Below, piece after piece: positions 8,221 through 44,500 of a stretch of DNA of 64,000 bases. The stretch comes from Legionellales bacterium. Lineage in GTDB: Bacteria > Pseudomonadota > Gammaproteobacteria > UBA1113. How positions within the stretch are numbered: position 1 is the first letter of the stretch; every line of letters begins with the position of its first letter. Made by a program: the position numbers and the translations under genes. Where the stretch lies: the NCBI GenBank assembly GCA_002709565.1, contig PAPY01000040.1, positions 2,319 through 66,318 on the forward strand, in the 5' to 3' direction. The notes under the pieces were generated by a model. The model saw only the letters and a program-made list of their open reading frames with translations, had not been told where the DNA came from and ran no database searches.

Positions 8221-8364
8221 CAGCAATTCCCCGCTTCCGGCGGGAATTGCTTCCCAAGTATTACGCTACGCGCGAAGTAAATTCGCACTTGCGCCTAAGA
8301 GGGAGAATCGCGATTCTCCCTCTTAGGAAACTCCCATCGCGAAAAGTCGAGGGGAAGCAGCTGG
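8221..8364. mobile_element. MITE-like structured repeat, family A, copy 2 (diverged)
   Basis: Same layout as 1131-1275, with a perfect 34-bp palindrome at 8294-8327. Flanking repeats are degenerate (CCTTTTCT versus CTTTTTTG). Confidence 0.75.
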
Positions 8365-8455
8365 CTTTTTTGAATTATTCTTTAAATTATTTACATAAAA
8401 TGCTTGATCGCATAAATCCGCCATGTTAGCGTTGGCTTCACGGTTAGGAGTCACT

Positions 8456-8893
8456 ATGCGATTGATGTTTATGTTCTTAAGTCTTCTCTTGCTCGGCGGT
8501 TGTGCGTCATCGAAAATTGCTATCAGTGTTGATGCTGCCCCCTATCTTAATCCCAATCAAACGGGCATTGCGGAACCGGTGGAACTGGTGGTGTATCAGT
8601 TACGGACCAGTGATGGTTTCCAGCAGGCGAGCTTTGACCAACTGTGGCAACAGGATGAGATGACTCTTGGGACACAATTATTGCGTAAACAAAAATATTA
8701 CATCTCCCCTAATAGCCACCAGCTTTGGCAACTACAACGTGATCCTAATGCCGAATATGTGGGTGCGGTGGCCTTATTTCGTCAACCCGACAGTGAACAT
8801 TGGCGGGTTGTGACACCCCTCAATAAAACAGCCCCGGGATTTGATAACCATGTGCGCTTATCCCTCAAGAGTAATCAATTAAGGGAGCAATGA
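8456..8893 (+). CDS. tssJ: T6SS outer-membrane lipoprotein TssJ
   Basis: Lipobox LGGC, LNPN...PVELVVYQLR...FQQASF, YVGAVALFR...WR. AGGAG RBS before 8456. Confidence 0.88.
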   Translation: MRLMFMFLSLLLLGGCASSKIAISVDAAPYLNPNQTGIAEPVELVVYQLRTSDGFQQASFDQLWQQDEMTLGTQLLRKQKYYISPNSHQLWQLQRDPNAEYVGAVALFRQPDSEHWRVVTPLNKTAPGFDNHVRLSLKSNQLREQ

Positions 8894-10179
8894 CAGTGAT
8901 TGAAATGCAACGCTTGCTTTGGACTGAAGGGATCCCTTTAACGCAACAACATTTTCAATCCTGGGAAGCATTTCTGCTGGCGCAGACCACGATGATTCAG
9001 CGCATAACTCGCAATGTGCAATGGGGTATTGCTGAATTGGATGTCTGCCAACGACAACTCGGTGAAGGCAAACTACAATTGTTGCGTTGCTGTTGTATTT
9101 TCCCCAGTGGATTGATGGTGGAATATGATAGTCGCAATGATGGCCCATTGCCGTGTGATATTCGCCGTGATGACTATACGTCTCAAGCATTGTATCTCGC
9201 GGTGCCGACCAATAACTGTATACAAGGTATTGCTGGTTATCCTGAATTACAACAAACGCCCCGATGGCACTGTTATCATGGGGAGATTGCCGATGATTTT
9301 GATCCAAAGCGGCAAGCAAGACTCGCTTTCATCAAACCTAATCTGCAATTATTAACGGACTTGGATAATCTTGACGGCTTTGAAACCATCAAGATAGCCG
9401 AGTTTGGCAATGATGACAGCCAGCGTCAACGGTCTCACTACATTCCACCGTGTTTGTGTGTGGGTGCCAGTCAGTCACTACAAGATACCCTAAAAGATAT
9501 CAGTCAAACGATAAAGTCCTACTATGTTAATTTACAAGATAATGCCAAACCCATAGCAGCGCGGTTATTGGCACTAGTAGATCTGAGTATTGCTGACTAT
9601 AGCACTTCTCCCAAACATTTATTTCAGCAGTTGTGTTTAAGTTTACAAGAATTAATCGCGCTGTCAGATGCAGATGTCATGGATATATCATTAACATATC
9701 AGCATGAATCAATGTCGATAACTTTTGCTACATATCAACAGACGATTAATGACTTATTAAAGCGTTTAACCGTCATAGTTCAACAACGGCGCAGCCTAAT
9801 CCAAGTGTCGGGTAATTATTTTTGTTTGGATAAATTAAAAGAAATTGGCGGTGGGCAAATTGTGTTATCTTGTGAAAATAACGCAAGCTATTTGGGTTGG
9901 ACCCATAATTTTGTTCAACAAGTGAAAATCAGCACTCGCATTAAACTTGAAGGCATCATCGCGGCGGCGTTGCCAGGCATAGTTTTGAAGCATCTCAAAC
10001 AAAGACCAACTAAACATAAGTATGACGGACTTGTTGAATATTTTCTCCTGGACAAGACTAGTCCGGATTGGCAAGAAGCTGTCGCTGATAACAAGTTATA
10101 CCTATTCTTGCCACCGCAATTTGAACACTGCCATTTGGATATAGAAATTTATGATGAAGACACTAGAACAATGTTGTGA
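8890..10179 (+). CDS. tssK: T6SS baseplate-to-membrane connector TssK
   Basis: LLWTEGIPLTQQHFQ, WGI, IFPSG, YLAVP, YIPPCL, ALPGI. ATGA overlap with tssJ. Confidence 0.88.
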   Translation: MTVIEMQRLLWTEGIPLTQQHFQSWEAFLLAQTTMIQRITRNVQWGIAELDVCQRQLGEGKLQLLRCCCIFPSGLMVEYDSRNDGPLPCDIRRDDYTSQALYLAVPTNNCIQGIAGYPELQQTPRWHCYHGEIADDFDPKRQARLAFIKPNLQLLTDLDNLDGFETIKIAEFGNDDSQRQRSHYIPPCLCVGASQSLQDTLKDISQTIKSYYVNLQDNAKPIAARLLALVDLSIADYSTSPKHLFQQLCLSLQELIALSDADVMDISLTYQHESMSITFATYQQTINDLLKRLTVIVQQRRSLIQVSGNYFCLDKLKEIGGGQIVLSCENNASYLGWTHNFVQQVKISTRIKLEGIIAAALPGIVLKHLKQRPTKHKYDGLVEYFLLDKTSPDWQEAVADNKLYLFLPPQFEHCHLDIEIYDEDTRTML

Positions 10180-10819
10180 GCCGGTATTTGATGCCGTGGT
10201 TGGGATACTACAAAATACCCTACAGGATGAAGCCGCTCTGCTACGCAAACATATGATTAAAGTGCTAGCAAGCTTTGAGGCCAGTGCTACTCAGGCAGGT
10301 CATGACAGTGCGAGTATTGGTGCGGCGAAATTAGCGCTGGTCGCCCTGATTGATGAAACAGTCATGCAAGAACAAAGTGACAGGAAAGTCGAATGGTCCA
10401 GACAATTATTGCAAGTGAAGTATTTTTCGCACCATTTGGCCGGTGAGACGTTCTATGATAATTTGCGCGAACTGCAGCAGGCCCCCTATCAACACATCGA
10501 TGTTATCACCGTGTACTACCTGTGCTTAGGCTTGGGATTTCATGGCAAATATGTCAATGATGTCGACAAAGTAAAGTCCATCAAATATAGCCTTGAACGC
10601 CAAATCAGCACTATTAGCCAATTGAAGAGTGACGGCAATTATCATATTAGCCAGGCCAGTCAAGCAACATTGACTAGCAAATTGATGAGACTGCCTTGGT
10701 GGGCTATGTTGGGCGTAACCGCAGGGATATTATTGAGTATTTATTTGGGCTACTCATTCGCTATCGATATAACCAGCCATCACTTACAACAAAAACTTCA
10801 CCATGTGAGGCAATACTAA
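10151..10819 (+). CDS. tssL: TssL/DotU family inner-membrane protein
   Basis: AKLALVALIDE, W...LQVKYF...AGETFY, VYYLCLGLGFHGKY, C-terminal TM. Confidence 0.9.
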   Translation: MMKTLEQCCEPVFDAVVGILQNTLQDEAALLRKHMIKVLASFEASATQAGHDSASIGAAKLALVALIDETVMQEQSDRKVEWSRQLLQVKYFSHHLAGETFYDNLRELQQAPYQHIDVITVYYLCLGLGFHGKYVNDVDKVKSIKYSLERQISTISQLKSDGNYHISQASQATLTSKLMRLPWWAMLGVTAGILLSIYLGYSFAIDITSHHLQQKLHHVRQY

Positions 10820-13800
10820 TGCAAACACCGTCTGTTTCTATTATTCAATTTCTAAAATTTGCTAGTATTAAACTAATAAATGCTCTACCCCGTCGACTAT
10901 TGATTGTGGGTGGTGGTCTACTCGTGGTGGGTGCCATGCTCGCCTGGTTAGCACCACTGTTGGGTATTGATAGTTGGTGGTTGCGGAGCTTTATCGTTAT
11001 CGTGCCATTGATAATTGGTATCCTATGGCGCATGCACAGCATAATTCACGCGTGGCTGCAGAATAATAAACTTTCACAAACATTCTTTAATCCCAGTGTG
11101 CAGGGTGATAATCTCGGCAAACAACTGGAACTAAATCTCCTAAAAGAAAAACTACAACACGCCGTCAAGACGGTACAGCGTAATCAACGGGGTTTTTGGC
11201 AACGACAAGCCGCTTTGTATCAGCTCCCTTGGTATGTCTTGATTGGCCCGTCTGCTGCGGGTAAGAGTAGTCTTTTGCGCCACTCTGATCTCAACTTTCC
11301 ATTAGCTAATACTGACGATATACGGGTGCAAGGCTATGGCGGTACTCGTAACTGTGATTGGTGGTTTGCGGATGAAGGGATCATTCTCGATACCGCAGGA
11401 CGTTATACCACAGCAACCGAAGATGAGGCTGAATGGTTGCGGTTTTTGGGGTTGCTGAAACGTTACCGGCCAAAATATCCATTAAACGGTATTCTCATTA
11501 CTCTGAGCTTGCCCGAATTATGTGAGGGCGACAAACAAGACTTACAACGTCATGTCACCGTCATCAGCCAGCGTATTAATGAAATATTTACCCGTCTTGG
11601 TTATGTTGTCCCGGTGACGATTATTTTGAGCAAAATAGATTTGTTGCCGGGTTTTGATGCTTTTGCAAAAGACTTGTCGGCTGAGTCAGCCAATGCACCA
11701 TTCGGTGTAGATTTGTCGGCAACGGATGTTGATAGTTCAGCTGCCCTACAAGCGGGTTTCGACGAACTGCGAGAGACGTTGTTTGCCAAACAACTGCAAA
11801 CGTTTGCGCACCATGATTCGCCTACCTTTAACAGTAGGGTATATCTGTTTAATCAAGCTTTCACTAAAGCAGCAACGCAGGTATCAGCCTTAGTCGAGTT
11901 ATTAATCACCGACTCTCCCTATCGCAAAAGTTTTCATTGCCAAGGGGTATATTTCACCAGTAGTTTGCAAGACTGTACAGACGAAAGTAACAGCCGTAGT
12001 TATTTTGTCAAAAATTTATTTTATCGTGTTATCCTGCCACATCAGCATGCTATCATCCCAACCCCTGAACAACGTAGACGTCAACAAACAGTCAATACAA
12101 CTGTTGCCTTTTTGTGCCTTGGCAGCATTATCGCAACAGCATGGCTCTATCACAGCGCATATCATTATAACAAACATCAATTACAACAGTTCGCGTTGGC
12201 AGGTAAACAACTCAGTGCTGAATTGTTACAGTCTGGTATTAACCAACAAACTTTTGTGGATATGATTGCATTAGCTGAACAACAACAGGCAGCAATCTCC
12301 AAGCACAAAACGCCGTGGCACTTACGACTAGGATTAAATCGACAATCTGCAATGGCGCTGTCATTAGAGCAGTTATTACAACGTATCGTGCGACATTACT
12401 ACCAACCCACGTCTATGCCAGCGCTGGCCTCCCAGTTACAACACTACCATACCCAGTGGCAACAACTGAACAAAATGGAACAACAACGCCTTCGAGGGGA
12501 ATATTACATAACCCTCAAAGCCTATTTGATGTTGGCAGATCCAGGTAACATGCGGGCAGACGCCATTGCTCCATTGTTGGTTCAGCATTGGCAACACACT
12601 GTCGGAATCCCGCGATTATCCAAACAACAAAAGACAGTGCTAGAAACACTGATGGGAAATTATTTAACCGTATATGGAGAGCAGAACCACTCACAGCCGA
12701 TAAATAATCAACTTGTTGATAGTGCTCGTAAGCAATTAGCCACAGGAACGAGTGCCAGTAATATCTATGCGGCGCTTAAACAACATTTACAACAGACAGC
12801 TTCGACTCTTAGTTTGCAACAAGTACTGGGTGCGCCCGCGCAACCGTTGTCAACGGCCATGGGGTTGCCGACCATGTATACCAAGAAGGGTTTTGATAAC
12901 AGTGTTCTGCCGGCAATTAAACAGCTTGCTGCGACTAGCAAGACCGATGCTTGGGTGATGGGAATTGCTGATGATAGTCATCATCGTCATGCCCATCTCG
13001 ATGATGAATTATTGCAAGCCTATTATGCTGATTCCCAAGATCAATGGCGCTATTGGCTAGGAACAATTCATATTCAGCCCTTTAGTACGGCGCTCGATGC
13101 GAGTCAACAATTGCATCGCTTGGCGAAGGCTAATGGTCCATTAGCCCATTTGTTAACGGCTATTGATACCAATCTTGGATTTACAATGCTGAATTATCAA
13201 CCCACAAAGTCTCTCCAGCAAGCGCTAATGCCTGCGCTGATGCATTTGGCTGATCCTATCGATGAGGCAGCCATTAAAGTGAATAGTAACAAACAGCGTT
13301 TTACCGCAGCGCAAGCGTTATTAACCGATAAAGGCGATCCCAGTAATCTTAGTACGACGCTAGCTACGGTGAATCAGCAACTGCAGGGACTCACTGATCC
13401 CAGTCAACAAGCCCTGTTGCGTCCCCTATTCTACTTGCCGCTAAAAACTACCTGGGAATATTATTTACAAGGCGCAGGGGAGTATTTACAACAGCGATGG
13501 CAACAAACCCTATTCCCTGTTTATCAAACTACGATTGCGGGTAAATTTCCCTTCGCTCACCATGGTCAAATAGCCTATCCAGAAGACATCGACAGCTTTT
13601 TTGCTCCCAGCAACGGTATCTTTTGGCAGTTTGTGCAAACTGAACTTGCAGGGTTTATCGAGCGAGGAGACCAACACTGGGTGACGCAACAATGGTTAGA
13701 TGAGGGGCTTCAATTATCCTCATCATTCATGGCGAGTCTTAATCGTGCATCTTACTGGACTCAGCATCTCTACGGTATTGATCCCCAGCATTTACGCACC

Positions 13801-14193
13801 CAGTTTGCTGTCTATCCCACCCCAACCCGTAATGTGAGTTCTGCAGAGCTTAGGATCTGTGACAAACATATTCATTATGCCAATGGCCCACAACAATGGC
13901 ACCAAGTACAATGTCCTAACCAAGGGATCAATGATAGCAGCGTGTTGACAGTGACTGACAGTAACGGGCGTAGCTATCAAAGCACAGTTTATTCAGGCAG
14001 TTGGGGCTTTTTGCAATTATTACAAACTGCTACTCTTGAGCGTCTGTCGCCTATCAGTTATCGACTGCATTGGCAATTGCAGCAACCATCAGGTAACAAA
14101 GTTATTCTCGAGTCATTATTACAAGATCCACAAAAGAGTCTTACGATGTTACTTCAGCCGCAGATCCAATTGCCCCGGCGGATGATACAATAA
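10819..14193 (+). CDS. tssM: TssM/IcmF family membrane-complex protein
   Basis: LYQLPWYVLIGPSAAGKSSLL (Walker A), GGTRNCDWWF, LDTAGRY, PLNGIL, GVYFTS, LKAYLML, GKFPF, GSWGFLQL. TAATG overlap with tssL gives the start at 10819. Confidence 0.93.
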   Translation: MQTPSVSIIQFLKFASIKLINALPRRLLIVGGGLLVVGAMLAWLAPLLGIDSWWLRSFIVIVPLIIGILWRMHSIIHAWLQNNKLSQTFFNPSVQGDNLGKQLELNLLKEKLQHAVKTVQRNQRGFWQRQAALYQLPWYVLIGPSAAGKSSLLRHSDLNFPLANTDDIRVQGYGGTRNCDWWFADEGIILDTAGRYTTATEDEAEWLRFLGLLKRYRPKYPLNGILITLSLPELCEGDKQDLQRHVTVISQRINEIFTRLGYVVPVTIILSKIDLLPGFDAFAKDLSAESANAPFGVDLSATDVDSSAALQAGFDELRETLFAKQLQTFAHHDSPTFNSRVYLFNQAFTKAATQVSALVELLITDSPYRKSFHCQGVYFTSSLQDCTDESNSRSYFVKNLFYRVILPHQHAIIPTPEQRRRQQTVNTTVAFLCLGSIIATAWLYHSAYHYNKHQLQQFALAGKQLSAELLQSGINQQTFVDMIALAEQQQAAISKHKTPWHLRLGLNRQSAMALSLEQLLQRIVRHYYQPTSMPALASQLQHYHTQWQQLNKMEQQRLRGEYYITLKAYLMLADPGNMRADAIAPLLVQHWQHTVGIPRLSKQQKTVLETLMGNYLTVYGEQNHSQPINNQLVDSARKQLATGTSASNIYAALKQHLQQTASTLSLQQVLGAPAQPLSTAMGLPTMYTKKGFDNSVLPAIKQLAATSKTDAWVMGIADDSHHRHAHLDDELLQAYYADSQDQWRYWLGTIHIQPFSTALDASQQLHRLAKANGPLAHLLTAIDTNLGFTMLNYQPTKSLQQALMPALMHLADPIDEAAIKVNSNKQRFTAAQALLTDKGDPSNLSTTLATVNQQLQGLTDPSQQALLRPLFYLPLKTTWEYYLQGAGEYLQQRWQQTLFPVYQTTIAGKFPFAHHGQIAYPEDIDSFFAPSNGIFWQFVQTELAGFIERGDQHWVTQQWLDEGLQLSSSFMASLNRASYWTQHLYGIDPQHLRTQFAVYPTPTRNVSSAELRICDKHIHYANGPQQWHQVQCPNQGINDSSVLTVTDSNGRSYQSTVYSGSWGFLQLLQTATLERLSPISYRLHWQLQQPSGNKVILESLLQDPQKSLTMLLQPQIQLPRRMIQ

Positions 14194-15096
14194 ATGGGGA
14201 TCATCACACAGTTATACCGTTATTTAGCGACCACGCCAGATAGGTACAGTTGTTTTGGTAAGCGAGCGACGGATGTGGAGTTTGTGCAGTTTGGCGAACG
14301 ATTTCCCGAGGCTCAGTGCCTTGATAGCTTGATTCAATCATTGTTTCAACGTCTGTGTGCTAACCGTTCAGCTACATCACTACAGGATTTTGGTGAGTTT
14401 CATTTTATTAGTCAAACTCCTCAGGGGATCTGTCTCGGCAAAGTCATCCCTAGCGCAGACAAGTCTGGACGCGAATATCCTTTAGCCGTGATTGTGAAGA
14501 GCCAGCAACAACACTATCAACAGCAAATATTTTTGCTACCGTATCGATATCACGAGCTATATGATCTGTCACTAAATTCCGAGCCTGGATCACTGCCGCA
14601 ACGCATCGAAGCAACGCTTGCTAATGTGCCAGATAAAGCCACTGTGTTATCGACCTGTCTTAGCGATTTGCGCTCACTCAGTGTAGGAGATTATCTAACA
14701 GCTTGTCCTTTTCAAGCCAGCGAAACTGGATTCATAGCAGTCTTATCAGGTAACATAAAAAAAATTTTAGCTAATGATCCCCTTTGCTTACCATTGCCGA
14801 ATGATCAAACCGTTACCGCCAGTGTTGCATTTTGGCTTTATTGCTTTAGTCATTCAATGACGGGTGATACGGTGCAGGTGATTTGGCGGCGTCCACCTAA
14901 TGCAAGCGCGGCCTGGCTTTATCTATGGCAATCGCCGGTGACGGCAGAAAGATTCAGTGAACTACTGGTAGAACAATATGCCCTGAGTCAGCTAGTCTGT
15001 ACAGACACAGTGACCACTATTGATGAAGCAAGACACAGAAGTTTATTTAGTCTATTAGAAGATCAATCTAGCTTTTCGCACCAGAGCTATTTTTGA
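14194..15096 (+). CDS. tagF: TagF/ImpM-like T6SS-associated protein
   Basis: FGK...EFV and PSADKSGREYPL motifs, positioned directly after tssM. Confidence 0.78.
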   Translation: MGIITQLYRYLATTPDRYSCFGKRATDVEFVQFGERFPEAQCLDSLIQSLFQRLCANRSATSLQDFGEFHFISQTPQGICLGKVIPSADKSGREYPLAVIVKSQQQHYQQQIFLLPYRYHELYDLSLNSEPGSLPQRIEATLANVPDKATVLSTCLSDLRSLSVGDYLTACPFQASETGFIAVLSGNIKKILANDPLCLPLPNDQTVTASVAFWLYCFSHSMTGDTVQVIWRRPPNASAAWLYLWQSPVTAERFSELLVEQYALSQLVCTDTVTTIDEARHRSLFSLLEDQSSFSHQSYF

Positions 15097-15135
15097 TGCA
15101 GAAAAGGGTAAAAAATTAACGAAAAAGCGGAATGT
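15071..15135 (-). repeat. Half copy of repeat family B overlapping the tagF stop codon
   Basis: Near-identical reverse complement of 24661-24724. Confidence 0.88.
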
Positions 15136-15139: not shown

Positions 15140-15415
15140 TCAATGGGTCGAAAAATCGGAATAATGCATCCAATCCATGGCTGCGCTGGTCACATCGGTG
15201 ACTTCAGCCCGTTCAGGTCCCTGCCAAAGCCATTTTTCGAGTGTATCAATTGCTGCATCATCACCACAGGCCACTACTTCAACGCGACCATCGGCAAGGT
15301 TTTTGGCGTAACCCGTGATCCCGAGTTTGTCTGCTTGGGCTTGAGTATTGGCCCGGTACCACACTCCTTGCACATGACCACTGACCCAGAATTTTTTACA
15401 CACTTGTGCCATCAC
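15140..15415 (-). CDS. acyP: Acylphosphatase
   Basis: VSGHVQGVWYR, GYAKNLADGRVEV, WLWQGP. Confidence 0.95.
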   Translation of the reverse strand: MMAQVCKKFWVSGHVQGVWYRANTQAQADKLGITGYAKNLADGRVEVVACGDDAAIDTLEKWLWQGPERAEVTDVTSAAMDWMHYSDFSTH

Positions 15416-15937: not shown

Positions 15938-17455
15938 TCAATCAGACTTGGGTTTGAAAGCGCTGAATTGCTCAGCAACTTTTTCACACACCGCTTCCCA
16001 GGTGCCGAGTTCTGCTTGGCGGAATAATTCCATACTGGGGTACCAGGTGGTTTTGTTACCGGCATTGCTCCATAACCAATCGTGTTGCCAAGGTAGCAGG
16101 TTCCACACGGGGATGTTTAACGCTCCCGCTAAATGGGCAATATACGAATCCACACAAATGATTAAATCCATCCGGGTCATGGCTGCCGCGACATCAGCAA
16201 TATCAGTAAAGTGTTCACTGAGATCATGGATTTGAGAGTCTTGTTTTAAGCCATCAGCAATAGCATTGTTGGGCTGCAGACTGTAGATGCGGGTATTCTT
16301 GCGCGACGTTAGAGTGTCTAATGCAGCCAGTGGACAATGGGCTGTACTTTGTAAATCAGCACTGTGTTTGCTGTACCAGAAAAAACCCACTGTCGTTGTT
16401 TTTTTGTCAGTTTTAATGAGTGCCTCCCACGGTTTGATAATGTCTTTGTCGAGTTTGAAATAGGGTACTTTGTGGGGAATTTTTTTGAGGTTTGGTACAA
16501 ACAATTCACCAAAGTCTTGAATGGGAATGTGCATATCGAATTTCGGTTTGCGTTTGCCATGTACAATGACTTTGTCGACATCTTTGTGTTGTTCAAATAA
16601 ACGCACAAGCTCTGGTTGTGCGTTAACAATAATAGTAGCATCTTTGTGTTTGATACTATCGATAAAACGAGCAAACAAAATACTATGCCCGAATGAAACT
16701 TCATTATTAATAAGTAATGTCTCGCCTTTTTTGAGGGGTTTGCCGTCAAAATGTTTTTTGCGGCTAGTAATTTTGAGTGATTTATACAGAGGTAACTTCA
16801 GTCGCCATTGGTATTCTGACCAGGCTTCATCGGTCATTGCCGCACGCAACAAAAACAAGCTGTGATCAAAATGCGGTTGTGGTTCTTTCTTATTAAGACT
16901 AATAGCCGCTTCATAATAGTACTTAGCGTCATCAATACGATTTTGCACAATAAAGACTTGAGCAAGTTTGGTATAGGCCGGCAAATAATCAGGATCGTTA
17001 TTAATGGCTTGTTGGAAATAGCTGGCAGCTTCGGCGAATAGGCCTTTGTCCGCCATCAATAAACCCACATTATAATAGGTCACAGGACAATCGCCATTGA
17101 GACTCAAGGCTCGTTGCAATTGATCGATAGCTTCATCGAGGCGAGCTTGTTGTTTTAAGACTAAACCCAAATTATAAAACAAGGTCGGGTTGTCGGGATT
17201 AAGTTCGGTGGCAGCACTGAGTAATTCCTCGGCCCGCTCTGTTTGACCACTACGCTGGGCGATGATGCCCATTAAGTTTAATACTTCCCAGCGGTCGGGA
17301 TTATTCAGTAATAAGCTTTTGCAAAACTCAATACAGTCTTTGATTTGACCTTCCTCAAAGAGCTTCTTTGCCAGTATATGATGGGTGCTGCTATGGGCAC
17401 CAATCACATGCTGTAGCTGGGGGGTGGCTTTGCTGGCTTTTGCTGCTTTTGTCAT
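15938..17455 (-). CDS. TPR-repeat protein with C-terminal glycosyltransferase (GT9-like) domain
   Basis: About six TPR units, then YQWR and MDLIICVDSYIAHLAGAL...WYPSMELFRQ. Confidence 0.85.
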   Translation of the reverse strand: MTKAAKASKATPQLQHVIGAHSSTHHILAKKLFEEGQIKDCIEFCKSLLLNNPDRWEVLNLMGIIAQRSGQTERAEELLSAATELNPDNPTLFYNLGLVLKQQARLDEAIDQLQRALSLNGDCPVTYYNVGLLMADKGLFAEAASYFQQAINNDPDYLPAYTKLAQVFIVQNRIDDAKYYYEAAISLNKKEPQPHFDHSLFLLRAAMTDEAWSEYQWRLKLPLYKSLKITSRKKHFDGKPLKKGETLLINNEVSFGHSILFARFIDSIKHKDATIIVNAQPELVRLFEQHKDVDKVIVHGKRKPKFDMHIPIQDFGELFVPNLKKIPHKVPYFKLDKDIIKPWEALIKTDKKTTTVGFFWYSKHSADLQSTAHCPLAALDTLTSRKNTRIYSLQPNNAIADGLKQDSQIHDLSEHFTDIADVAAAMTRMDLIICVDSYIAHLAGALNIPVWNLLPWQHDWLWSNAGNKTTWYPSMELFRQAELGTWEAVCEKVAEQFSAFKPKSD

Positions 17456-17531
17456 TGCTCTCTCGGGCTATTCATAGAATACAGAGTGCTCCATAATAAT
17501 AGGACGCACTCCTGTCAGTATAGACTATTGA

Positions 17532-18182
17532 TTATGCGGTGGTAGCTACCATTTCCCGTTTTAGATCCTGCAAGATCCCTTCTGCTGGGGCGTTGCTGTG
17601 GTAGGCATAGATAAGCGCCCCCTGGGGGTTGACCAAATACAGAACAGGCCGATTATCCGCTCGGACCAACTCTGGCACGAGTTGGTTGAATTCATTGAAT
17701 TCCGATGGGGTTAAGGTGGCATATTGGGCCGTGGGGTATTGGCTCTCCACCAGTTGGTAAATAGGGTTATCGGTTTCTTTGGGCAAGCTGACCACTAATC
17801 GGGCAACCCGATTGCCTTGGCTTTTGAGACCGGTGCGGACCTGGCCCATTTTGTATACAGTATCAATGCACGCTTCCCGGCAAGCCACAGGCGTCATATA
17901 AAGTAAAATCCAACGGCCGCGATAATGGGAAAAGCTTAACGGTGAGCCATCGGCACCAATCATTTGAATTGTGTCTAGAGATACTGGTGGCATGATAGCG
18001 GTACCAACATTGAGACCAGATTCCTGCCAAATGCCACGATTGCTGTAGACTGCGATAGCGATCATGACAGGGGCTAAAAACATCAAAAAAATCATCAGCC
18101 GCGTGCGCTGCTTTTGTTTCTTCTCGAGTTCCGGGCGTTCTTCGACTTTGGTAATTTTAATTCTAGCTTCTTCGCTCATCAA
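17532..18182 (-). CDS. Membrane-anchored SCO/thioredoxin-like protein of cytochrome oxidase loci
   Basis: N-terminal TM, GRWILLY...CREAC, LYLVNPQG. Lies downstream of subunit III. Confidence 0.7.
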   Translation of the reverse strand: MMSEEARIKITKVEERPELEKKQKQRTRLMIFLMFLAPVMIAIAVYSNRGIWQESGLNVGTAIMPPVSLDTIQMIGADGSPLSFSHYRGRWILLYMTPVACREACIDTVYKMGQVRTGLKSQGNRVARLVVSLPKETDNPIYQLVESQYPTAQYATLTPSEFNEFNQLVPELVRADNRPVLYLVNPQGALIYAYHSNAPAEGILQDLKREMVATTA

Positions 18183-33246: not shown

Positions 33247-35124
33247 ATGAGTTATCCACCTGCCAGACCAAACCAGCGCGTGAATTCCACTGCTGAGACG
33301 GCAACAGGCACAACAGGCGACGTCAGGCCAAATTTTGAAGCCGAGTTGCGCTGGCGAGCAGATCTCAAAAATGCGCGTCGCGTAGAATACAGCGCACTAC
33401 CTGGCCTTGAATATTGGCGCAATAATGCTGACAGTTATGCAGGATATGATGATCACCGTAGTGTTTATGATCATGAATTAGCTGATGGCATTGACCGTGG
33501 GGCAATCAACGACATATTCCAAGAGATTGAACAGTTATCAACTTTTGTCGATCAACTTAGAGAGTACCGCAGGTATTTGCCTAGAGACCAAGAAGAGTTT
33601 GCAATGGAATTCGAAGAATATTCTAAACGCTATCAAGACTTAAACTGTCAGCTTACAGAGTACAATGCGGCCATCGAGGCTGGCGGTGCGGTTACGCAAG
33701 GCCAAATGGTGGAATTATTACAGTTATTTATTGATTTAGTGGGTAATACAATCGAGTTGTACATCAAAATGTCTAAATTAACTAATCAATATAATAATAT
33801 TAAGCAGCAGCTTGATAGGCTTAAAGCAGAGATTGACAAATCAGTACCTAAAGTTAGTGGTTCTCCCATGTTACGCAATCAATTATTAGCTGAATTAGGT
33901 TGGGAGGTAGAGCTTCATAATATCTCCACTAAAGGACGTGATAAGCGACTACGAACCCGAATTGTTAATAATGGACAACAGCAATGTGAAGAAGTTATTC
34001 CTTCAACAGAGGCGCAAATTCATCAACGTGTCCATAAGTTAAAACAAGTTTACGAGATGATTAATGCGTATTTAACCAAATCTGAATCTATGGAACTTGA
34101 TGCGTCAAATAAAGAATTGGGGCTCGAAAGCCTTGAGTCAGCTGCCGATGTCAAAGAACTCCGTGACCATTTGCGAATTTTGCTCAATGTGCATGACCAT
34201 ACTCATCGGGATTACATCCACAATATGTATGAAATTATTTCAGAGAAATTCACAAAAAACTGCAGTGAAATCGGTAGCGATTATAAACATGAAGGTGCAC
34301 CTATTCCCCATAATATGGTGTTTGGCAAGAACTTCATAGAAGAGATGGACAACCTCATGATGTATCAATTGCAACCGTTCATCATACGGATAGCTTTGCC
34401 TGGAATTATTAATGTTCTCATAGATTTTGAGAACGCACTAAAAGATCCTAAAGACCAGCCAATTCCTTTCCAGCCTTATAGAAGTCATTCTGCCACTACG
34501 GAAGAATGGAATGCAATGTTCATAACAGCCAATGACATGTCTAAAAACTTACAAGTATTTATAACGTTCTCGGAAAATTTTTCAGTAGAGAGTGAAATAG
34601 TGGAGATGGTTGGTGAGCTGAATAGCTATTGTATGTTGTATTTTGCGATGTTGACTATGTTTGAGGTTGGCACCCATGAACCAGCTGACCAAAATAAGCT
34701 TTATAATAACGCAAGCAATTTACAAAAGCTTATCCGCGATAAATTTATGCAGTGTCAAGAGCTGAAATCCTATTTACAAGAACAAGGCGATATTGATCAA
34801 AACGGTGCACCAGCGGAAGAAGTCACGGCTACGGTAGAATCCATGACTAGCGAACAAGAAGTGTATACTGCAACCCAGCGTGTAGATGCTACTCCACCGA
34901 AAGGGGCAGCCCAGCAAGTGGCGATGATGAGTAGTGTATTTGCTAGCCAAGAGAATGCACATCGCAACGGTAGTGATTCAAATGATAAATCATACCCAAC
35001 AACGCCATCAAAGCCAAAACAACCCCTTGGTGAGGAAAGAGAGAGACTAGCAGACATCATGCGTGAGAAGCGGAGAACGGAAAAGCATGGAAATGGTGAG
35101 CAACGACGCTGTTTATTTCGCTAG
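33247..35124 (+). CDS. Orphan alpha-helical/coiled-coil protein, candidate Dot/Icm effector
   Basis: 625-aa ORF with CAGGA RBS, no signal peptide, helical heptads and a disordered C-terminus. Confidence 0.7.
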   Translation: MSYPPARPNQRVNSTAETATGTTGDVRPNFEAELRWRADLKNARRVEYSALPGLEYWRNNADSYAGYDDHRSVYDHELADGIDRGAINDIFQEIEQLSTFVDQLREYRRYLPRDQEEFAMEFEEYSKRYQDLNCQLTEYNAAIEAGGAVTQGQMVELLQLFIDLVGNTIELYIKMSKLTNQYNNIKQQLDRLKAEIDKSVPKVSGSPMLRNQLLAELGWEVELHNISTKGRDKRLRTRIVNNGQQQCEEVIPSTEAQIHQRVHKLKQVYEMINAYLTKSESMELDASNKELGLESLESAADVKELRDHLRILLNVHDHTHRDYIHNMYEIISEKFTKNCSEIGSDYKHEGAPIPHNMVFGKNFIEEMDNLMMYQLQPFIIRIALPGIINVLIDFENALKDPKDQPIPFQPYRSHSATTEEWNAMFITANDMSKNLQVFITFSENFSVESEIVEMVGELNSYCMLYFAMLTMFEVGTHEPADQNKLYNNASNLQKLIRDKFMQCQELKSYLQEQGDIDQNGAPAEEVTATVESMTSEQEVYTATQRVDATPPKGAAQQVAMMSSVFASQENAHRNGSDSNDKSYPTTPSKPKQPLGEERERLADIMREKRRTEKHGNGEQRRCLFR

Positions 35125-35174
35125 CTGAAGAATACTTTATAATTTTTAATAACAATAAAATACAGGACAACACT

Positions 35175-36701
35175 ATGCCAAATCCAAAAATAGCCACAGA
35201 GCCAACAATTAAGACGACCGATAACTCGATCACTAATATGACGGGCGCGCCTGCCGCAATCAGTTCGGCTCAGATAACCACGAGTGAGATAGTTGATGCC
35301 TTAGAAGATGCGCGTGCAGATATTGAGAGCTTAGCTGATGTTAACAAGCACTCAGAAAGCGTTCGTGCAGCAGCGCGACAGGAATTTATACGACTACAGT
35401 CAGAATATGTAGCAATCTGGGAAATGATTAATACCCTAAAAACAAAGGAAATAAAACCCAATGACATTGCAAGCATAATTTCGCAACTATACGACTTAAC
35501 AATTGATGGATTGCAGTTCATTCATATGATCCAAGCGCTGTGGCAAATAACAGAAGACAAAATACAGAGCATGAGACTAAGCCGGTCCAGTCTTAGTCAA
35601 TGCCTTGGTAAATTACCGCTTGACCTCAGTGTGTTACCAGGCGAACAGCTATTTCACCGACGTTATGGGTTATTGACCGATCTAGTATCGGACCTGCCTT
35701 TATTACTATCGGACATAGCAGCACCAGATGAATTAACCACAGAAGAGTCACTGATTGAAGTGCTGCGGTTGTTAGTGCCTGCATATGAATGCCTTTTGCA
35801 ATACCGAGAGAGTCATGATGTTGCATTACTGGATAATTTACGTGAAGTTTATGGTATTGAGTTTGCGCGTGATCAAGTTGATAAGGTAATAACACATTTT
35901 GAGGAATTATTACAATGTCATGGTGAATTGACGCTGCGGAATTTAAGCAAAGACTTTGCGTGGCTTGAGGATGAGTTAGGGCCTTTGCAGTGCAGCTTAC
36001 AACAAGCTCATAAGGCGACTCAGGGAAATATTATCAGTGTAGTGCTGACACGCTTAACCGATGCGGTGAGGTTGTTTGAGATAACCTACAATGATGGTGA
36101 GAAGAAGTTGTCTCAGGTGTTGCAGAGAACGGACTTCTTCAATCTTGAACAAGAGAATCTCAGTGAACTACTCCAGGAGTTACGAACTAAGTGTGATAAA
36201 TTTGTCGCTATAGAAGCTGCACTCCCTGATGAAGCTGTATATCAAAATCTTCATAACTATGTCAGCGCCTTTGATAGATATTTAGTGCTTTTTAAGCACT
36301 TATTGGCAGTGGATACCGGTGCATTGGATGAAGAAATCAAAGTGATTTTACAATCACAATTGTGTGTCATCATCCAAGTTTGTCATTTCAAACACGAACA
36401 GTGTGTGCAAGAGCGGCTACGTTTGTATAAAGGGGATCGTATTGATTTCGCGGGTAAGGCATTAGCACTGCCTGCAGCAATGTTCTCAACCACTTCTGAC
36501 ATTGCCCCCGAGAGTGCAGCTGCTATAGCGCAGTTCGGTGTGCTCAAAGTTGGCAATCGTTGTGAGGCTGCACCTTCAGCACAGCCAGGCGCGCATTCTG
36601 ATGAAGAGAACCAGGGAGAAGCCAGCCAGTTGCCCAGGGATGATGCTGCTGAAGCCTACAAACAAGCTCGGGTCGGGTTCGGGTCAGATGGCGGTGTTTA
36701 A
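35175..36701 (+). CDS. Orphan alpha-helical protein, candidate Dot/Icm effector
   Basis: 508-aa Leu/Glu-rich ORF with CAGGA RBS and an acidic disordered C-terminus. Confidence 0.7.
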   Translation: MPNPKIATEPTIKTTDNSITNMTGAPAAISSAQITTSEIVDALEDARADIESLADVNKHSESVRAAARQEFIRLQSEYVAIWEMINTLKTKEIKPNDIASIISQLYDLTIDGLQFIHMIQALWQITEDKIQSMRLSRSSLSQCLGKLPLDLSVLPGEQLFHRRYGLLTDLVSDLPLLLSDIAAPDELTTEESLIEVLRLLVPAYECLLQYRESHDVALLDNLREVYGIEFARDQVDKVITHFEELLQCHGELTLRNLSKDFAWLEDELGPLQCSLQQAHKATQGNIISVVLTRLTDAVRLFEITYNDGEKKLSQVLQRTDFFNLEQENLSELLQELRTKCDKFVAIEAALPDEAVYQNLHNYVSAFDRYLVLFKHLLAVDTGALDEEIKVILQSQLCVIIQVCHFKHEQCVQERLRLYKGDRIDFAGKALALPAAMFSTTSDIAPESAAAIAQFGVLKVGNRCEAAPSAQPGAHSDEENQGEASQLPRDDAAEAYKQARVGFGSDGGV

Positions 36702-37247
36702 GTGGGTTCTGTGACTGTTAGTATGGGTCTGAAAGCAACCATTTCAGTCTCAATACTGCTCGTTAGGGTGTGTGCGCTAGTTCTGAAAGCTTTATATGGT
36801 CGCATTAATGCCAGTTGTGGAAGGTGATCTAGGCTATTTTGCCGATATTTTTGTTTAGCTTCTAGCGCAAAATCCGCCTTAAAATCAACCAATTGCTCCT
36901 ATCCTGATCAGCCTAAGCCCTTGTTATCACTACAGATCGGAAAATGACACAATTTTTTTTGTCGAAAATCAAAGTTTTTTTTCGGGATTTTCTGCGCAAA
37001 AAATAGCTAATAACCTGCACCAGCAAAAGTCGCTAACTTACTAATTTATAAGAGATTTACCCTAAACTTAATGTATTTTCTCTGGTCATAAAAGCAGCAA
37101 AAAAGACCAAAACATTCATTCGTTCAAATTTTTAATATGTGCTAACGCTTTGTTTTTACTGAAATTTGTTTTACAGGCCCAAAAAGGGCTGTTATAGTCC
37201 AGCGAAATATCACTACGGTATTAGTTTCAAGAATAAGGAATATTACT

Positions 37248-39779
37248 ATGTATGCATTGACTGATGATCTCTTAGCTCTACTTGTTAATCCACAAGAAAA
37301 CTTGATTCCACAGAACAAGCAGCCGAACGCAACGTTGCCAGACGGGCTCCAAGTGCTGCAGCAGTTCCTGATTGATTGTGAACAGGCCAAGCTAAAGTTG
37401 TCCAAGAAGAAAGTCGTCATTAATGGCAAACAGGAGTTGGTACCACAAAACTTCAAAGATGAGGTGTTAGTGACGTTCCAAGAGGCACTGGAGCTATTAA
37501 TCTTTGACTATGCTTACATAGAGGCAACGAATAAAGGTGCGCAAGTTTCTCGACGTTCTTCACTAAAGCCCCAGGCAGCAGGTGATTCTCAGGGAATGGT
37601 AGGCGCAAGAAATGCTGCCAGAATGCTGCTAGATAAAGTCGCCGGGCACGAGGGACTAATTAAATCAGCAGGAGACTCTTCTTTAAGTAGCTTGGTCAGA
37701 AGTAAAAAAACACCACTACTTCAAAAAGCAGACGAGAACACGCTTATTATTAATCGTTCATTAGTCGCGTTATTCATGAGTGTATATTGCATTATTGAAC
37801 AGGCGCTTCATCAATCATTATCAACATTTTCAAGTCAGGAGCCTCTTACACAAGCGATAGCGAAATACAAAGATGCTAAATCACTAGAGGCTAAAACTGC
37901 GGCAAAGGCTGAAATTATCCAACTATTACTAGCTAGAGTTTGTCATGATAAATACCCACGTAAAAAAACAGCTTATGAAGAGGAGTATTATGCCTATGTT
38001 AGACGGGGAAATGAATGGTTGGCAAGGGAGAATGTTTTAACCGAATTTGAGGCGCGCCTAAGCAGGATTGAAACATTATGGGAACAACAGGACATTGTGG
38101 ATGACCATGATCCATTATTACATTCTAAAACAGCGATATTAACTGTTATTGGTCAGATTAAACAAGATATTGATAAGTATAAAAAAAATGCTAAAGAGAG
38201 CGGAGTATTACAATTCAGTGTATTAGAATTTGTTCATAATTCTCGGGATACGCTGAAAACATTTATGAAAACTATGCCATCTGCTAGCCACATAAGTAAT
38301 GAATTATACGGAGGTAGCGTACGACTATTAAAAGATATACCAGGACTTGTTAAAATTGAAAGAGAATCAAGAAGCGCAATTAAACTTCAATATAATAGGC
38401 CACGCTCTGGTACGGGTCTAGAAAAACTTACAAATTCAACATTGCGACACTCAATTCAGCTATCACAAGGATTGGATGATACTGTCAGAATTGCAGAGTC
38501 TGCAGATATTACTCCCTATGACAAACACTTTAAAGAGCTATATACTGTTTTAAAAATGGTTGAGGTTTTCTATAAGCGATTTGTGAGTCTTCACGACACG
38601 CTTTCTGATGATAAGCGAAGAACTCTTAGCAAAATTTTTAAAAATGCCGAGCTCGAGGATGATAAAAAGTTTTATGTGAATAATATTGCTAGGTTTAATA
38701 AGCTAGTCAAAATGCTTAATACATATGATGGAATATTTAAGAAGTGTAACTTATCTCAAGAGCGATTAAGCAGTCTATCAAAGCAAGGAATGGAGCATAG
38801 TAAGCTTGCTAGAGAACTAATTAAGCTTTTGCTATTGATGTCTTTACAGGAACTAGGTGTAGAGTATTATGGAAGATCAGACGTAGTAAAATTGCTTGAA
38901 GAATTAAAGATATCATTGGCGGAAAAAGACCTCCGCCAACTGATTGCTGAGGCTAAGCAACAGTGTGCTCAACTTGATAGTCAAATGTATCTGCCGACAA
39001 GTATATCGAAAGCCAGTATGACAGATAGCCTTGATGAAGGCGATGATGTGGTGGACAAAATTTACGATACTCCAGCGCCGCAACCACAACGGACAGGAGC
39101 GATGCAAGAATCAAGAGAAGGTGGTGCTGAATTTCTAGTTGGTTCCGGTGGAGGTGCGACTGAAATTCAAGCTGAGAAAGCTATGGCAATTGGGGGGGAG
39201 CAACCAAGACATACCAGACAGCTATCTCATCGGGGGGATAATCCGGTCCTTGTGATTCAAGGATCTACTCCACCCCCTCTGCCGTCTCGAGGTAATCCAA
39301 AATCGGATCCTCGTCGTGAATCTGATGCTGGTACACCACCAACAAGTCATACTCTAACTACCCGCTTAGAACAAGCTAATATTGATGGATCTTCAGCTAG
39401 TGCGGAAACAGGAGCAGGCGGTGGTAGTCGTGACTCTGTTGCACAACCACTCTCAGGCTCTGGCAGTGCATCACAACTTCCGTCACCACCAAGTAGCGAT
39501 GATGACGTCGGTGCGTGGAAACGCGTTACACAAAACTCTTGGACTTGGAAAACTGCTGCCGGGCTTGAATTTTTTGTTGGCGGCGGTGTCATTGGCACAA
39601 AAGTGGGTGTTGGTTTGGGGTTATTTACTTTAGGTTTCTCGTTATCCAATCCAGTAACCGCAACAATTATGTTTGTTGCATTTGCCTTGGTTGTCGGCGC
39701 CGCAATCACAACTTTATTAGCAGGAAGCTTGACGATTAAAGATGGAATACAGAAGTGTATGAGTCCAAGCAATAGTTGA
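37248..39779 (+). CDS. Orphan protein with helical N-terminus, Pro/Ser-rich linker and C-terminal TM hairpin (candidate effector)
   Basis: 843-aa ORF with TAAGGA RBS, IYDTP and PPLPSR motifs, and a bilobed hydrophobic segment. Confidence 0.72.
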   Translation: MYALTDDLLALLVNPQENLIPQNKQPNATLPDGLQVLQQFLIDCEQAKLKLSKKKVVINGKQELVPQNFKDEVLVTFQEALELLIFDYAYIEATNKGAQVSRRSSLKPQAAGDSQGMVGARNAARMLLDKVAGHEGLIKSAGDSSLSSLVRSKKTPLLQKADENTLIINRSLVALFMSVYCIIEQALHQSLSTFSSQEPLTQAIAKYKDAKSLEAKTAAKAEIIQLLLARVCHDKYPRKKTAYEEEYYAYVRRGNEWLARENVLTEFEARLSRIETLWEQQDIVDDHDPLLHSKTAILTVIGQIKQDIDKYKKNAKESGVLQFSVLEFVHNSRDTLKTFMKTMPSASHISNELYGGSVRLLKDIPGLVKIERESRSAIKLQYNRPRSGTGLEKLTNSTLRHSIQLSQGLDDTVRIAESADITPYDKHFKELYTVLKMVEVFYKRFVSLHDTLSDDKRRTLSKIFKNAELEDDKKFYVNNIARFNKLVKMLNTYDGIFKKCNLSQERLSSLSKQGMEHSKLARELIKLLLLMSLQELGVEYYGRSDVVKLLEELKISLAEKDLRQLIAEAKQQCAQLDSQMYLPTSISKASMTDSLDEGDDVVDKIYDTPAPQPQRTGAMQESREGGAEFLVGSGGGATEIQAEKAMAIGGEQPRHTRQLSHRGDNPVLVIQGSTPPPLPSRGNPKSDPRRESDAGTPPTSHTLTTRLEQANIDGSSASAETGAGGGSRDSVAQPLSGSGSASQLPSPPSSDDDVGAWKRVTQNSWTWKTAAGLEFFVGGGVIGTKVGVGLGLFTLGFSLSNPVTATIMFVAFALVVGAAITTLLAGSLTIKDGIQKCMSPSNS

Positions 39780-39814
39780 TGGAAGCAAAATCATTTCAAC
39801 ATGGGAAAATCTCA

Positions 39815-39873
39815 GTCATCCCGGGCATATATACTTTTGCGACTGCAAAAGTATATAATGCGCCCCGGGATCT
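39815..39873. repeat. REP-like hairpin (GTCATCCCGGG...CCCGGGATCT) between convergent genes
   Basis: Outer stem ATCCCGGG/CCCGGGAT and inner stem TATACTTTTGC-GACT-GCAAAAGTATA. Confidence 0.7.
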
Positions 39874-39920
39874 TTATCCTGTCTCCTCAATCTTAGCTAA
39901 GGCTTTGTTTATTACAACCG

Positions 39921-40214
39921 TTAAACCAACAAACTAGAAATATCTCGGTAGCCACTCAAAACGCGGACAACTTTGATAGGGAAATCATAACTGTAAACAA
40001 TGAGGTAGTGTGCTTTGAATGGCCAGAACCTCACAGGTTTATTTGTTAGATCAGGTCTTTCATGACCCATCATGGGGTTTTCGGCAAGCATAGCTAATGA
40101 TTTGAATAATGAATCGAGTAGTTTTAGAGCTGCATTTTTGTTTTCAACAGCGATATAAGAAACAATGTCATCAATGTCTTGTTCTGCAATCTCGGTAAGG
40201 TAATAATTTGTCAC
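39921..40214 (-). CDS. ParE/RelE family toxin
   Basis: LTEIAEQDIDDI...LAENPMMGHERPDL...VVRVLSGYRD. Confidence 0.9.
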   Translation of the reverse strand: MTNYYLTEIAEQDIDDIVSYIAVENKNAALKLLDSLFKSLAMLAENPMMGHERPDLTNKPVRFWPFKAHYLIVYSYDFPIKVVRVLSGYRDISSLLV

Positions 40215-40477
40215 TCTTCATCCTGGTTTATGTTCTCAATTTTATTTTTTAGTCGTTGATAAGACTTTTCTGCATCAACAATATTTCCTGATGTTAACTC
40301 ATGAAAACCAAGATTGATAGACTGATTAAGCTGTTGGATACGCTGTTGTTGTAAAGTATCATGGGTATGCATTAATCGTAATGACTCACGAATCACTTCG
40401 CTAGCTGAAGTATAGAGTCCACTGGATACTTTTTCTTGGACATACTTCTCGAGTTCAGAGGTAAGAGATATATTCAT
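40211..40477 (-). CDS. ParD family RHH antitoxin
   Basis: MNISLTSELEKYVQEKVSSGLYTSASEVIRESLR. Overlaps the toxin start by 4 bp. Confidence 0.92.
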   Translation of the reverse strand: MNISLTSELEKYVQEKVSSGLYTSASEVIRESLRLMHTHDTLQQQRIQQLNQSINLGFHELTSGNIVDAEKSYQRLKNKIENINQDEE

Positions 40478-40508
40478 GGTTTTGCACCTTTTTCAATAAC
40501 AATTAACT

Positions 40509-40544
40509 ATAACAAAGTATAGCAATCTTTGTTATTTCTTGCCA
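40509..40544 (-). promoter_or_regulatory. TA operon promoter with an overlapping inverted-repeat operator
   Basis: Minus strand TGGCAA-N17-TATACT. ATAACAAAG-N9-CTTTGTTAT at 40509-40535 covers the -10. Confidence 0.7.
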
Positions 40545-40673
40545 TTAGGCCGACAATTTTTGTTAGGATTCAGTTAAAATCGTTATTTTGACTACTTATA
40601 TTCATGAGCATTCTTCGAATATGAATATTTGTTATAGAAATCAAAGGCTTGGTTGGCCTTGGATTTGAACGTA

Positions 40674-40940
40674 CTACCTCCTCCCAAATGCAGGTTGTCG
40701 CTTCAATACGAGTTTTTGAGCTTCTTGGCTATCTTCTGTTTCAGTAACTGAGGCCTGTAATGCCGCTGCTGCCTCACTACAACAGTTAGCACCGGCTACA
40801 GCCATATTCTTTAACGCCGTCAAAAACTCAAGTGCTTTTTCAGGCGGGATAGGATTATCATTTCTGCGTCTACGTACTAAGTCACCTGTGCCCATATTTT
40901 CTTTTCCCGATGCTCGTTTTACGCCGCCGTTTTTCACCAT
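40674..40940 (-). CDS. Small hypothetical protein
   Basis: 88-aa ORF with a GAGGAG RBS. No recognisable family. Confidence 0.5.
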   Translation of the reverse strand: MVKNGGVKRASGKENMGTGDLVRRRRNDNPIPPEKALEFLTALKNMAVAGANCCSEAAAALQASVTETEDSQEAQKLVLKRQPAFGRR

Positions 40941-41092
40941 TATGCTCCTCTAAATGCATCAAAAACAGCGCCAATATATCCCATCAAAATCACAAAATCT
41001 ATAATAAATACAACGAGTTAGGAATGTCTTACACGGCATGTGAGATCCAGTCCACGAACTGCAGTTAGGTTTAGGTGATGTAGTAGCCGTGA

Positions 41093-42835: not shown

Positions 42836-42871
42836 GATTCTCTATCCAAACAGTTAAACAAGGCCTATTTA

Positions 42872-43897: not shown

Positions 43898-43933
43898 AGG
43901 CGCGAATTTTATCACGTATCAGGCGGGGAGAAT

Positions 43934-44500
43934 ATGGCAAGTTACAGTACTAATGAATTCAAAGGCGGTTTAAAGATCATGCTCGATGGCGATCCCTGCA
44001 GCATTATCGAGAATGAATTCGTCAAACCCGGCAAAGGCCAAGCCTTTAATCGGGTCAAAATTCGTAACTTAAAGACAGGCCGGGTGATAGAGCGTACTTT
44101 TAAATCCGGCGAATCGGTTGAAGCGGCGGACGTTTTAGATGTGGATGCCCAGTATCTGTACAATGACGGTGAGTTTTGGCATTTTATGATTCCTGATACC
44201 TATGAGCAGCATGCCGCGGAGCACAAAGCGGTCCTCGATGCCGAGAAATGGCTCAAAGAACAAGACATGTGTACCGTTACTCTCTGGGATGGTGTACCAC
44301 TGTCTGTTAGTCCGCCGAATTTTGTCAGTCTTACCATCACAGAGACCGATCCTGGCCTCAAAGGCGATACCTCCTCCGGCGGCAGCAAGCCTGCGACCTT
44401 AGAGACCGGTGCTGTAGTGCGGGTTCCCCTGTTCGTCCAAGAAGGCGAAATGATCAAGGTGGATACCCGGACCGGGGAGTATGTTTCGCGGGTTAAATAA
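43934..44500 (+). CDS. efp: Elongation factor P
   Basis: [39 protein letters not shown]. Confidence 0.98.

Follow-up and report, generated by a model that had tools for sequence, protein, structure and literature searches.

We analyzed a 64,000-nucleotide (nt) stretch of DNA (the window; G000:C40:2319-66318) from a Legionellales bacterium, which carries at positions 8423-15096 five genes of a type VI secretion system (T6SS), tssJ-tssK-tssL-tssM-tagF. Our results indicate, with a probability of about 88%, that this operon encodes the half of a T6SS-i that anchors it in the envelope, the system being vertically inherited and split over several loci, with its contractile half on another contig (C5) and its spike supplied by three orphan vgrG genes. 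A preliminary description of the window had offered two readings, half of a split T6SS or a tail-less envelope complex with a new role, and had favored the latter. The window is part of genome G000, which consists of 40 contigs totaling 2.41 Mb and has a completeness of 99.58%.

The five genes are intact, lie on the + strand between dsbG and acyP, and follow each other so closely that consecutive open reading frames (ORFs) overlap or abut (by 4, 29, 1, and 0 nt). This arrangement, which had been described together with repeats on both sides, was confirmed by the ORFs, by profile searches, and by blastn. Judged from the profile matches, the family assignments of tssJ, tssK, tssL, and tssM, four of the five operon genes, are firm (Table 1). 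The proteins of the T6SS-i membrane complex, TssJ, TssL, and TssM, all exceeded the curated cut-offs, with 104.5, 147.9, and 618.2 bits, respectively, and the match of TssK to PF05936 spanned profile positions 1-425 of 429. The translations retain the motifs that had been pointed out initially, namely, the lipobox of TssJ (LLGGC) and the Walker A (GPSAAGKS) and DTAG motifs of TssM. The latter protein contains four IcmF/TssM Pfam domains, the C-terminal IcmF_C among them. For tssJ, an internal ATG at 8456, where the preliminary description had placed the beginning of the operon, yields a cleaner signal peptide, MRLMFMFLSLLLLGGC, and is likely the true start. The open frame of tssM (10696-14193) opens at a TTG inside tssL, and the ATG at 10819, which shares 1 nt with the tssL stop, is more likely to be the start than the TTG at 10696. 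Promoter and terminator scans gave counts no higher than those of shuffled sequence.

As the preliminary description had stated, no gene for the sheath, tube, baseplate wedge, or spike was found in the 64-kb window. Indeed, all genome-wide matches to TssC, VgrG, Hcp, TssB, TssF, and TssG were located on other contigs. The tssB, tssC, hcp, tssF, and tssG genes form a module on C5, the frames of which are all open. Three solitary VgrG-like genes (C26:36288-38228, C22:41113-42855, and C22:109488-111227) showed matches to Phage_GPD of 101.4, 86.9, and 66.5 bits (cut-off 30.1), and one of them also contains the OB domain. Hence, the baseplate (TssK, TssF, and TssG), sheath (TssB and TssC), tube (Hcp), and spike (VgrG) components of a T6SS-i are all represented in G000. 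A self-search established that every T6SS gene except vgrG is present in a single copy, and these genes occupy four or more places (C40, C5, C26, and C22) instead of a single cluster. The gap between the operon and the tail genes on C5 amounts to at least 24 kb, the sum of the 10.7 kb of C40 and the 13.7 kb of C5 that lie between each module and its nearest contig end. Since neither module lies at a contig end and each has housekeeping genes on both sides, the split between membrane and tail genes is genuine and not an assembly artifact.

G000 is the sole genome of its genus in our collection. The TssK of the window, used as a query, had matches in 6 of 41 genomes, one of which was G000 itself; within the family, the matches came from 4 of the 20 other genomes (G003, G005, G007, and G008), and the TssC model picked out an identical set of family genomes (5 of 21 when G000 is counted). 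In G005, G007, and G008, the 16 to 20 kb fetched with a tssJ-tssK-tssL-tssM block contained no tail gene, and tssB-tssC-hcp-tssE-tssF-tssG lay on a separate contig. G008 and G003 additionally possess a separate canonical T6SS cluster. The surroundings of both halves are shared with G000: the membrane block is followed by acyP in G005 and G007, by an AhpC/thioredoxin-like gene in G007, and by a tetratricopeptide repeat gene in G008; a pteridine reductase gene adjoins tssB in all three genomes; and further common neighbors are a methyltransferase gene (G005 and G007) and an alpha/beta hydrolase gene (G007). Because these three genomes share the chromosomal context of G000, the split predates the divergence of these four genera, which have since retained both halves. 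Thus, of the two readings proposed initially, the split T6SS is the one borne out, with tssB, tssC, hcp, tssF, and tssG on C5, three vgrG genes, and synteny of the split in three sister genera. The conservation of the five-gene unit, which was to be checked in relatives, held for tssJKLM in G005, G007, and G008 but not for tagF, which was not found there by profile.

We then compared the operon with more distant loci. A locus scan of species-representative genomes, based on an alignment of four TssK sequences, returned 136 confirmed relatives among 251 pattern matches, the best 80 of which were kept. The TssK of the window shares 21 to 27% identity with those relatives and no more than 27% with any relative fetched; the nearest ones, at 23 to 27%, are far beyond the saturation limit of a dN/dS comparison. 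When 5.8 billion proteins were searched by words with TssK, only TssK itself was returned, and its cluster at 90% identity consists of a single sequence, present on 9 contigs. In 24 of the best 80 loci, tssK-L-M was followed by tssB on the same strand, the usual order being tssJKLM-(tagF)-tssBC-hcp-tssE-tssF. Such contiguous loci came from Planctomycetota, Myxococcota, Ectothiorhodospira, Natronospirillum, and uncultured Gammaproteobacteria. A TagF profile built from the window protein and 11 homologues detected homologues directly after tssM in loci of Planctomycetota and Myxococcota, and gave no match in the loci of G005, G007, and G008. Since TagF homologues follow tssM in contiguous clusters, G000 keeps the ancestral tssJKLM-tagF arrangement, interrupted immediately ahead of tssB, and the split would have arisen by an ancestral rearrangement of a contiguous cluster. 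Furthermore, TssC was found elsewhere in all five genomes that we chose for having a tssJKLM block that was isolated as far as the fetched flanks extended (G043 to G047). All nine genomes tested that have an isolated membrane block (G000, G005, G007, G008, and G043 to G047) therefore also have TssC.

Several results weigh against the reading of the operon as half of a T6SS-i. Some proteins fell short of the stricter models: the TagF-like protein scored 38.7 bits with TIGR03373 (cut-off 41.2), TssF and TssG scored 208 and 66.2 bits with the NCBIfam equivalog models (cut-offs 260.3 and 143.3), and all three VgrG-like proteins were below the TIGR03361 cut-off, the best reaching 145.6 bits versus 186.35. 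Other components were not found in G000 at all. No ClpV scored above the cut-off, the best match being a ClpB-like protein with 842.2 bits versus 884.95. The ImpA_N domain of TssA was not detected, in a search that a TssA without ImpA_N would escape, and PAAR was likewise not detected. TssE was not found by TIGR03357 or PF04965 in spite of the 99.58% completeness, and a profile made from 53 TssE sequences had no match at an E value of ≤10 among all 23,878 stop-to-stop frames of the genome; as G000 is in 40 contigs, a small gene could fall in a gap. Concerning expression, no RNA sequencing run covering 8423-15096 is listed. Relative to a T6SS-i, G000 consequently differs on four counts, namely, TssE, ImpA_N-type TssA, ClpV, and a single locus. 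Among five other genomes (G005, G007, G008, G041, and G042), ImpA_N and an above-cut-off ClpV occurred in only one, beside the separate canonical cluster of G008. ClpV and an ImpA_N-type TssA thus went unfound for this T6SS lineage across the genomes tested and not for G000 alone, whereas the loss of TssE looks specific to G000.

Indeed, a TssE of 119 to 173 amino acids (aa) is encoded between hcp and tssF in G005, G007, and G008 (58.0, 56.5, and 77.4 bits, respectively, with TIGR03357; cut-off 53.2). In G000, the same slot consists of 430 bp of noncoding DNA and an ORF of 430 aa (C5:23853-25145, - strand; L018:3854-5146). When the TssE proteins of the three relatives were searched by tblastn against C5:23000-26200 and against the whole genome for a tssE remnant, we obtained only one 17-residue chance match (E value of 0.24). 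The 430-aa protein is charged, of low complexity, and largely disordered. It matched no NCBIfam family and, at an E value of ≤1, no Pfam family except for one match of 12.9 bits, at chance level. Its Atlas model has a mean predicted local distance difference test (pLDDT) score of 0.38, structural matches all had template modeling scores of ≤0.26, and there was no usable feature match. A HMMER search among 1.84 billion representatives returned only an identical fragment of 93 aa, and the ORF is present in 1 of the 21 family genomes, G000 itself.

These results raise the possibility that the system is a decaying relic, i.e., the same split T6SS, no longer working as a contractile injector in G000. 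According to the preliminary description, the presence of all tail, baseplate, and ClpV genes elsewhere in the genome would have pointed to an ordinary split T6SS; tssB, tssC, hcp, tssF, tssG, and vgrG were found, but TssE, ClpV, and an ImpA_N-type TssA were not. As the set is incomplete, decay has to be considered. Decay would bear on function alone and does not conflict with the identity of the operon. The loss of tssE, at a position where three sister genera retain it and where G000 has a nearly relativeless ORF of low model confidence and no tssE remnant, would be the start of erosion, with tssJKLM-tagF still intact because disabling mutations have not yet been acquired. Loss of the system appears common, since it is patchy in the family (5 of 21 genomes). 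However, open, full-length frames with near-complete profile coverage are seen in all ten T6SS genes that remain and in the three vgrG genes, and the start/stop overlaps of the operon are kept. In Vibrio cholerae, a tssE mutant is described as forming ∼1,000 times fewer structures and still killing, at a reduced rate (PMC6745524), so TssE loss need not abolish function; a tssA mutant likewise retains reduced activity (PMC6745524). Because activity is reduced yet present in the V. cholerae tssE mutant, a machine that is weakly active and one that is dead are both conceivable in G000, and we regard a nonfunctional T6SS as the less probable of these, although a serious contender. Conversely, a contractile T6SS that works with only 10 of the 13 canonical core genes, without TssE, ImpA_N-type TssA, and ClpV, and in which the 430-aa protein serves as a wedge substitute or as a baseplate-loaded cargo or effector, seems improbable. 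If true, a T6SS reduced to a natural minimum would operate next to a type IVB system in a Dot/Icm-bearing intracellular bacterium.

The reading favored by the preliminary description was a tail-less envelope complex that acts as a gated channel, a docking platform, or a second localization module for Dot/Icm, and that represents an intermediate in the co-option of TssL/TssM as DotU/IcmF. It was suggested by the lack of tail genes in the 64-kb window and by the presence there of the Dot/Icm genes icmL/dotI, icmK/dotH, icmE/dotG, icmG/dotF, icmJ/dotN, icmF, and dotU. Yet the tail and baseplate genes are in the same genome (C5, C26, and C22), and TssC accompanies the isolated membrane block in every one of the nine genomes mentioned above. 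Moreover, Dot/Icm already owns a TssL/TssM-like pair in the window, dotU-icmF at 59542-63757 on the - strand, and IcmF was found in 20 of the 21 family genomes versus 5 of 21 for the T6SS block. We consider this reading very improbable.

The relation between TssM and IcmF was evaluated in a tree of 64 sequences, obtained by a quick IQ-TREE search under LG+G4, with Shimodaira-Hasegawa approximate likelihood ratio test supports only and several long branches flagged. The 804-aa TssM of G007, excluded by a length filter of 850 aa, and three duplicate loci were left out. The 19 IcmF proteins formed one clade (support of 100), the sister of which was composed of the canonical TssM proteins of G008 and G003 (98), followed by three further canonical TssM proteins (100). 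The TssM of the window belonged to a separate clade of 11 gammaproteobacterial T6SS TssM proteins (100), farther from the IcmF clade than the five canonical ones. It is 23% identical to the IcmF of the window and scores 148.7 bits with the IcmF_IVB model (cut-off 1,000); TssL is 27% identical to DotU over 209 residues. An intermediate position of this TssM on the way to the IcmF of Dot/Icm was thus rejected on the basis of its separate T6SS clade, its tssJ and tssK neighbors, and its IcmF_IVB score.

We also made several observations on the Dot/Icm genes themselves. The IcmF of the window passes the NCBIfam equivalog cut-off for TssM (808.8 versus 388.15 bits) and fails that of IcmF_IVB (386.3 versus 1,000). 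Automatic annotation could therefore call dotU-icmF a second T6SS and miscount T6SS loci in such genomes. In G008, the IcmF orthologue matches in two pieces (G008:C6:66301-69677; L128 and L150), the longer of which has 2 internal TGA stops, so icmF may be broken or split in this genome, which has two T6SS loci. On the same contig, the tail module and icmF are ∼24 kb apart (tssC at 40724-42082, icmF at 66301-69677), and they are ∼18 kb apart on one contig of G005 (G005:C65; tssC at 16513-17880, icmF at 35832-38918). Large ankyrin-repeat proteins are encoded a few kilobases beyond tssG in G007 (L041:1137-3761, - strand, 874 aa) and in G005 (L043:1947-5630, - strand, 1,227 aa), with subthreshold matches to models of Dot/Icm Ank effectors. 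In the window, a block at 33247-46906, immediately upstream of the Dot/Icm genes, has a low guanine-plus-cytosine (GC) content (0.41 to 0.42 versus 0.45 to 0.49 around it). It contains five large ORFs without a Pfam family (625, 508, 843, 580, and 694 aa), which are candidates for secreted effectors or an island, and a radical-SAM-like ORF (42872-43915, - strand); a cytochrome P450 gene (302.8 bits) follows at 46919-48247 on the - strand.

Table 1. Coordinates of the T6SS genes, the dotU-icmF pair, and the repeats flanking the operon (positions without a contig name refer to the window; NTPase, nucleoside triphosphatase)
Feature	Position	Strand	Details
tssJ, outer-membrane lipoprotein of T6SS membrane complex	8423-8893	+	156 aa; PF12790, 103.3 bits; TIGR03352, 104.5 bits (cut-off 31.6)
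tssK, baseplate subunit linking baseplate to membrane complex	8890-10179	+	429 aa; PF05936, 188.3 bits; TIGR03353, 209.3 bits (cut-off 100)
tssL, DotU family short form, inner-membrane subunit	10151-10819	+	222 aa; PF09850, 157.6 bits; TIGR03349, 147.9 bits (cut-off 89.95)
tssM, inner-membrane NTPase-like subunit	10819-14193	+	1,124 aa from ATG; TIGR03348, 618.2 bits (cut-off 388.15)
tagF-like gene, TagF N-terminal domain plus C-terminal half without family	14194-15096	+	300 aa; PF09867, 31.0 bits (cut-off 27)
tssB	C5:27544-28053	-	TIGR03358, 134.2 bits, over cut-off
tssC	C5:26070-27560	-	TIGR03355, 619.6-619.8 bits, over cut-off
hcp	C5:25575-26060	-	TIGR03344, 165.7 bits, over cut-off
Orphan 430-aa ORF	C5:23853-25145	-	No family
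tssF	C5:22220-23827	-	PF05947, 200 bits, over Pfam cut-off
tssG	C5:21441-22256	-	PF06996, 70.9 bits, over Pfam cut-off
icmF and dotU	59542-62928, 62912-63757	-	IcmF, TssM equivalog, 808.8 bits; DotU, IcmH/DotU_IVB, 197 versus 50
Dispersed palindromic intergenic repeat copy, ∼85-105 nt	8242-8347		blastn of intergenic stretch versus genome
39-nt dispersed repeat directly after tagF	15097-15135		At least 18 further copies, 93-100% identity, several at contig ends

The flanks of the operon gave no sign of an island. Upstream lies dsbG (DsbG NF008657, 198.3 bits) and downstream acyP at 15140-15415 on the - strand (acylphosphatase PF00708, 82.8 bits). The GC content of 8 to 16 kb is 0.44 to 0.46, within the 0.41 to 0.49 measured elsewhere in the window. 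The upstream repeat includes a perfect 34-nt palindrome at 8294-8327 (inverted repeat of 17 + 17 nt, 100% complementary), and blastn detected copies of this repeat on many G000 contigs, as matches of 80 to 92%, some of them at contig ends. We rejected the two repeats as ends of a mobile element or island, given that they are generic intergenic repeats common across G000. Independently of the operon, both short repeat families (palindromic, ∼85 to 105 nt; 39 nt) are common genome-wide and, because they are often located at the ends of G000 contigs, they probably cause the assembly breaks.

With the operon read as half of a split T6SS, we infer that the two halves work together. From what is established for these families, TssJ, TssL, and TssM would form a trans-envelope channel onto which TssK would dock the baseplate of TssF, TssG, and VgrG; the Hcp tube and the TssBC sheath would then polymerize from the baseplate, and contraction would expel Hcp-VgrG. 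TagF restrains T6SS assembly posttranslationally in characterized systems. The machine of G000 may work at low efficiency, as does that of the V. cholerae tssE mutant. More generally, a tail-less machine should not be deduced from a T6SS membrane operon that is isolated within a 64-kb window, a question that whole-genome searches settle quickly. Our results describe, in an uncultured family of Dot/Icm-bearing Gammaproteobacteria, a two-locus T6SS at fixed chromosomal positions over four genera, for which no ClpV or ImpA_N-type TssA was found. In addition, G000, with an orphan gene in place of tssE, offers a natural test of the dispensability of TssE.

The H1-T6SS of Pseudomonas aeruginosa is a canonical T6SS-i cluster with a tssJ-tssK-tssL-tssM-tagF block. 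The operon of the window shares with canonical T6SS-i the five families (with TagF represented by a TagF-like gene), their order, their translational coupling, the Walker A motif of TssM, and the lipobox of TssJ. It differs in that canonical systems form a single cluster whereas the block of the window is at least 24 kb from the tail genes, in the lack of a detected ClpV, ImpA_N-type TssA, TssE, and PAAR in G000, and in the strong divergence of the G000 proteins. The DotU and IcmF proteins of Dot/Icm belong to families homologous to TssL and TssM (27% and 23% identity, respectively, to those of the window) but to another clade, and the TssL and TssM genes of the window are beside tssJ and tssK, not beside icm genes.

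Francisella is reported to have a T6SS-ii without ClpV that depends on ClpB (PMC5481754 and PMC7182274). The resemblance to G000 lies in an intracellular bacterium without a dedicated ClpV, the best match to the ClpV model in G000 being the ClpB-like gene (842.2 bits). By analogy alone, and as pure conjecture, ClpB might have a role in the T6SS of G000. The two systems differ in that the window genes match T6SS-i models (TssJ, TssK, and TssM equivalogs) and not the Francisella island proteins.

One preprint reports T6SS in restricted clades of Legionellaceae (10.1101/2024.10.21.619444). A close counterpart to the system of G000 is that of "Ca. Centrionella anaeramoebae," a Legionellales symbiont with Dot/Icm, for which a preprint describes a partial, multilocus T6SS that is called degenerate (bioRxiv 10.64898/2026.04.11.717937). 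There, the components listed as present are three orphan VgrG, Hcp, TssJ/K/M, TssB/C, and TssF/G, and those listed as absent are ClpV and TssA/E/L (10.64898/2026.04.11.717937). Thus, a partial T6SS similar to that of G000 is already reported in Legionellales by that 2026 preprint. Compared by these reported gene lists, the two inventories are nearly the same except for TssL, which is listed as absent from the symbiont and is clear in the window (147.9 bits).

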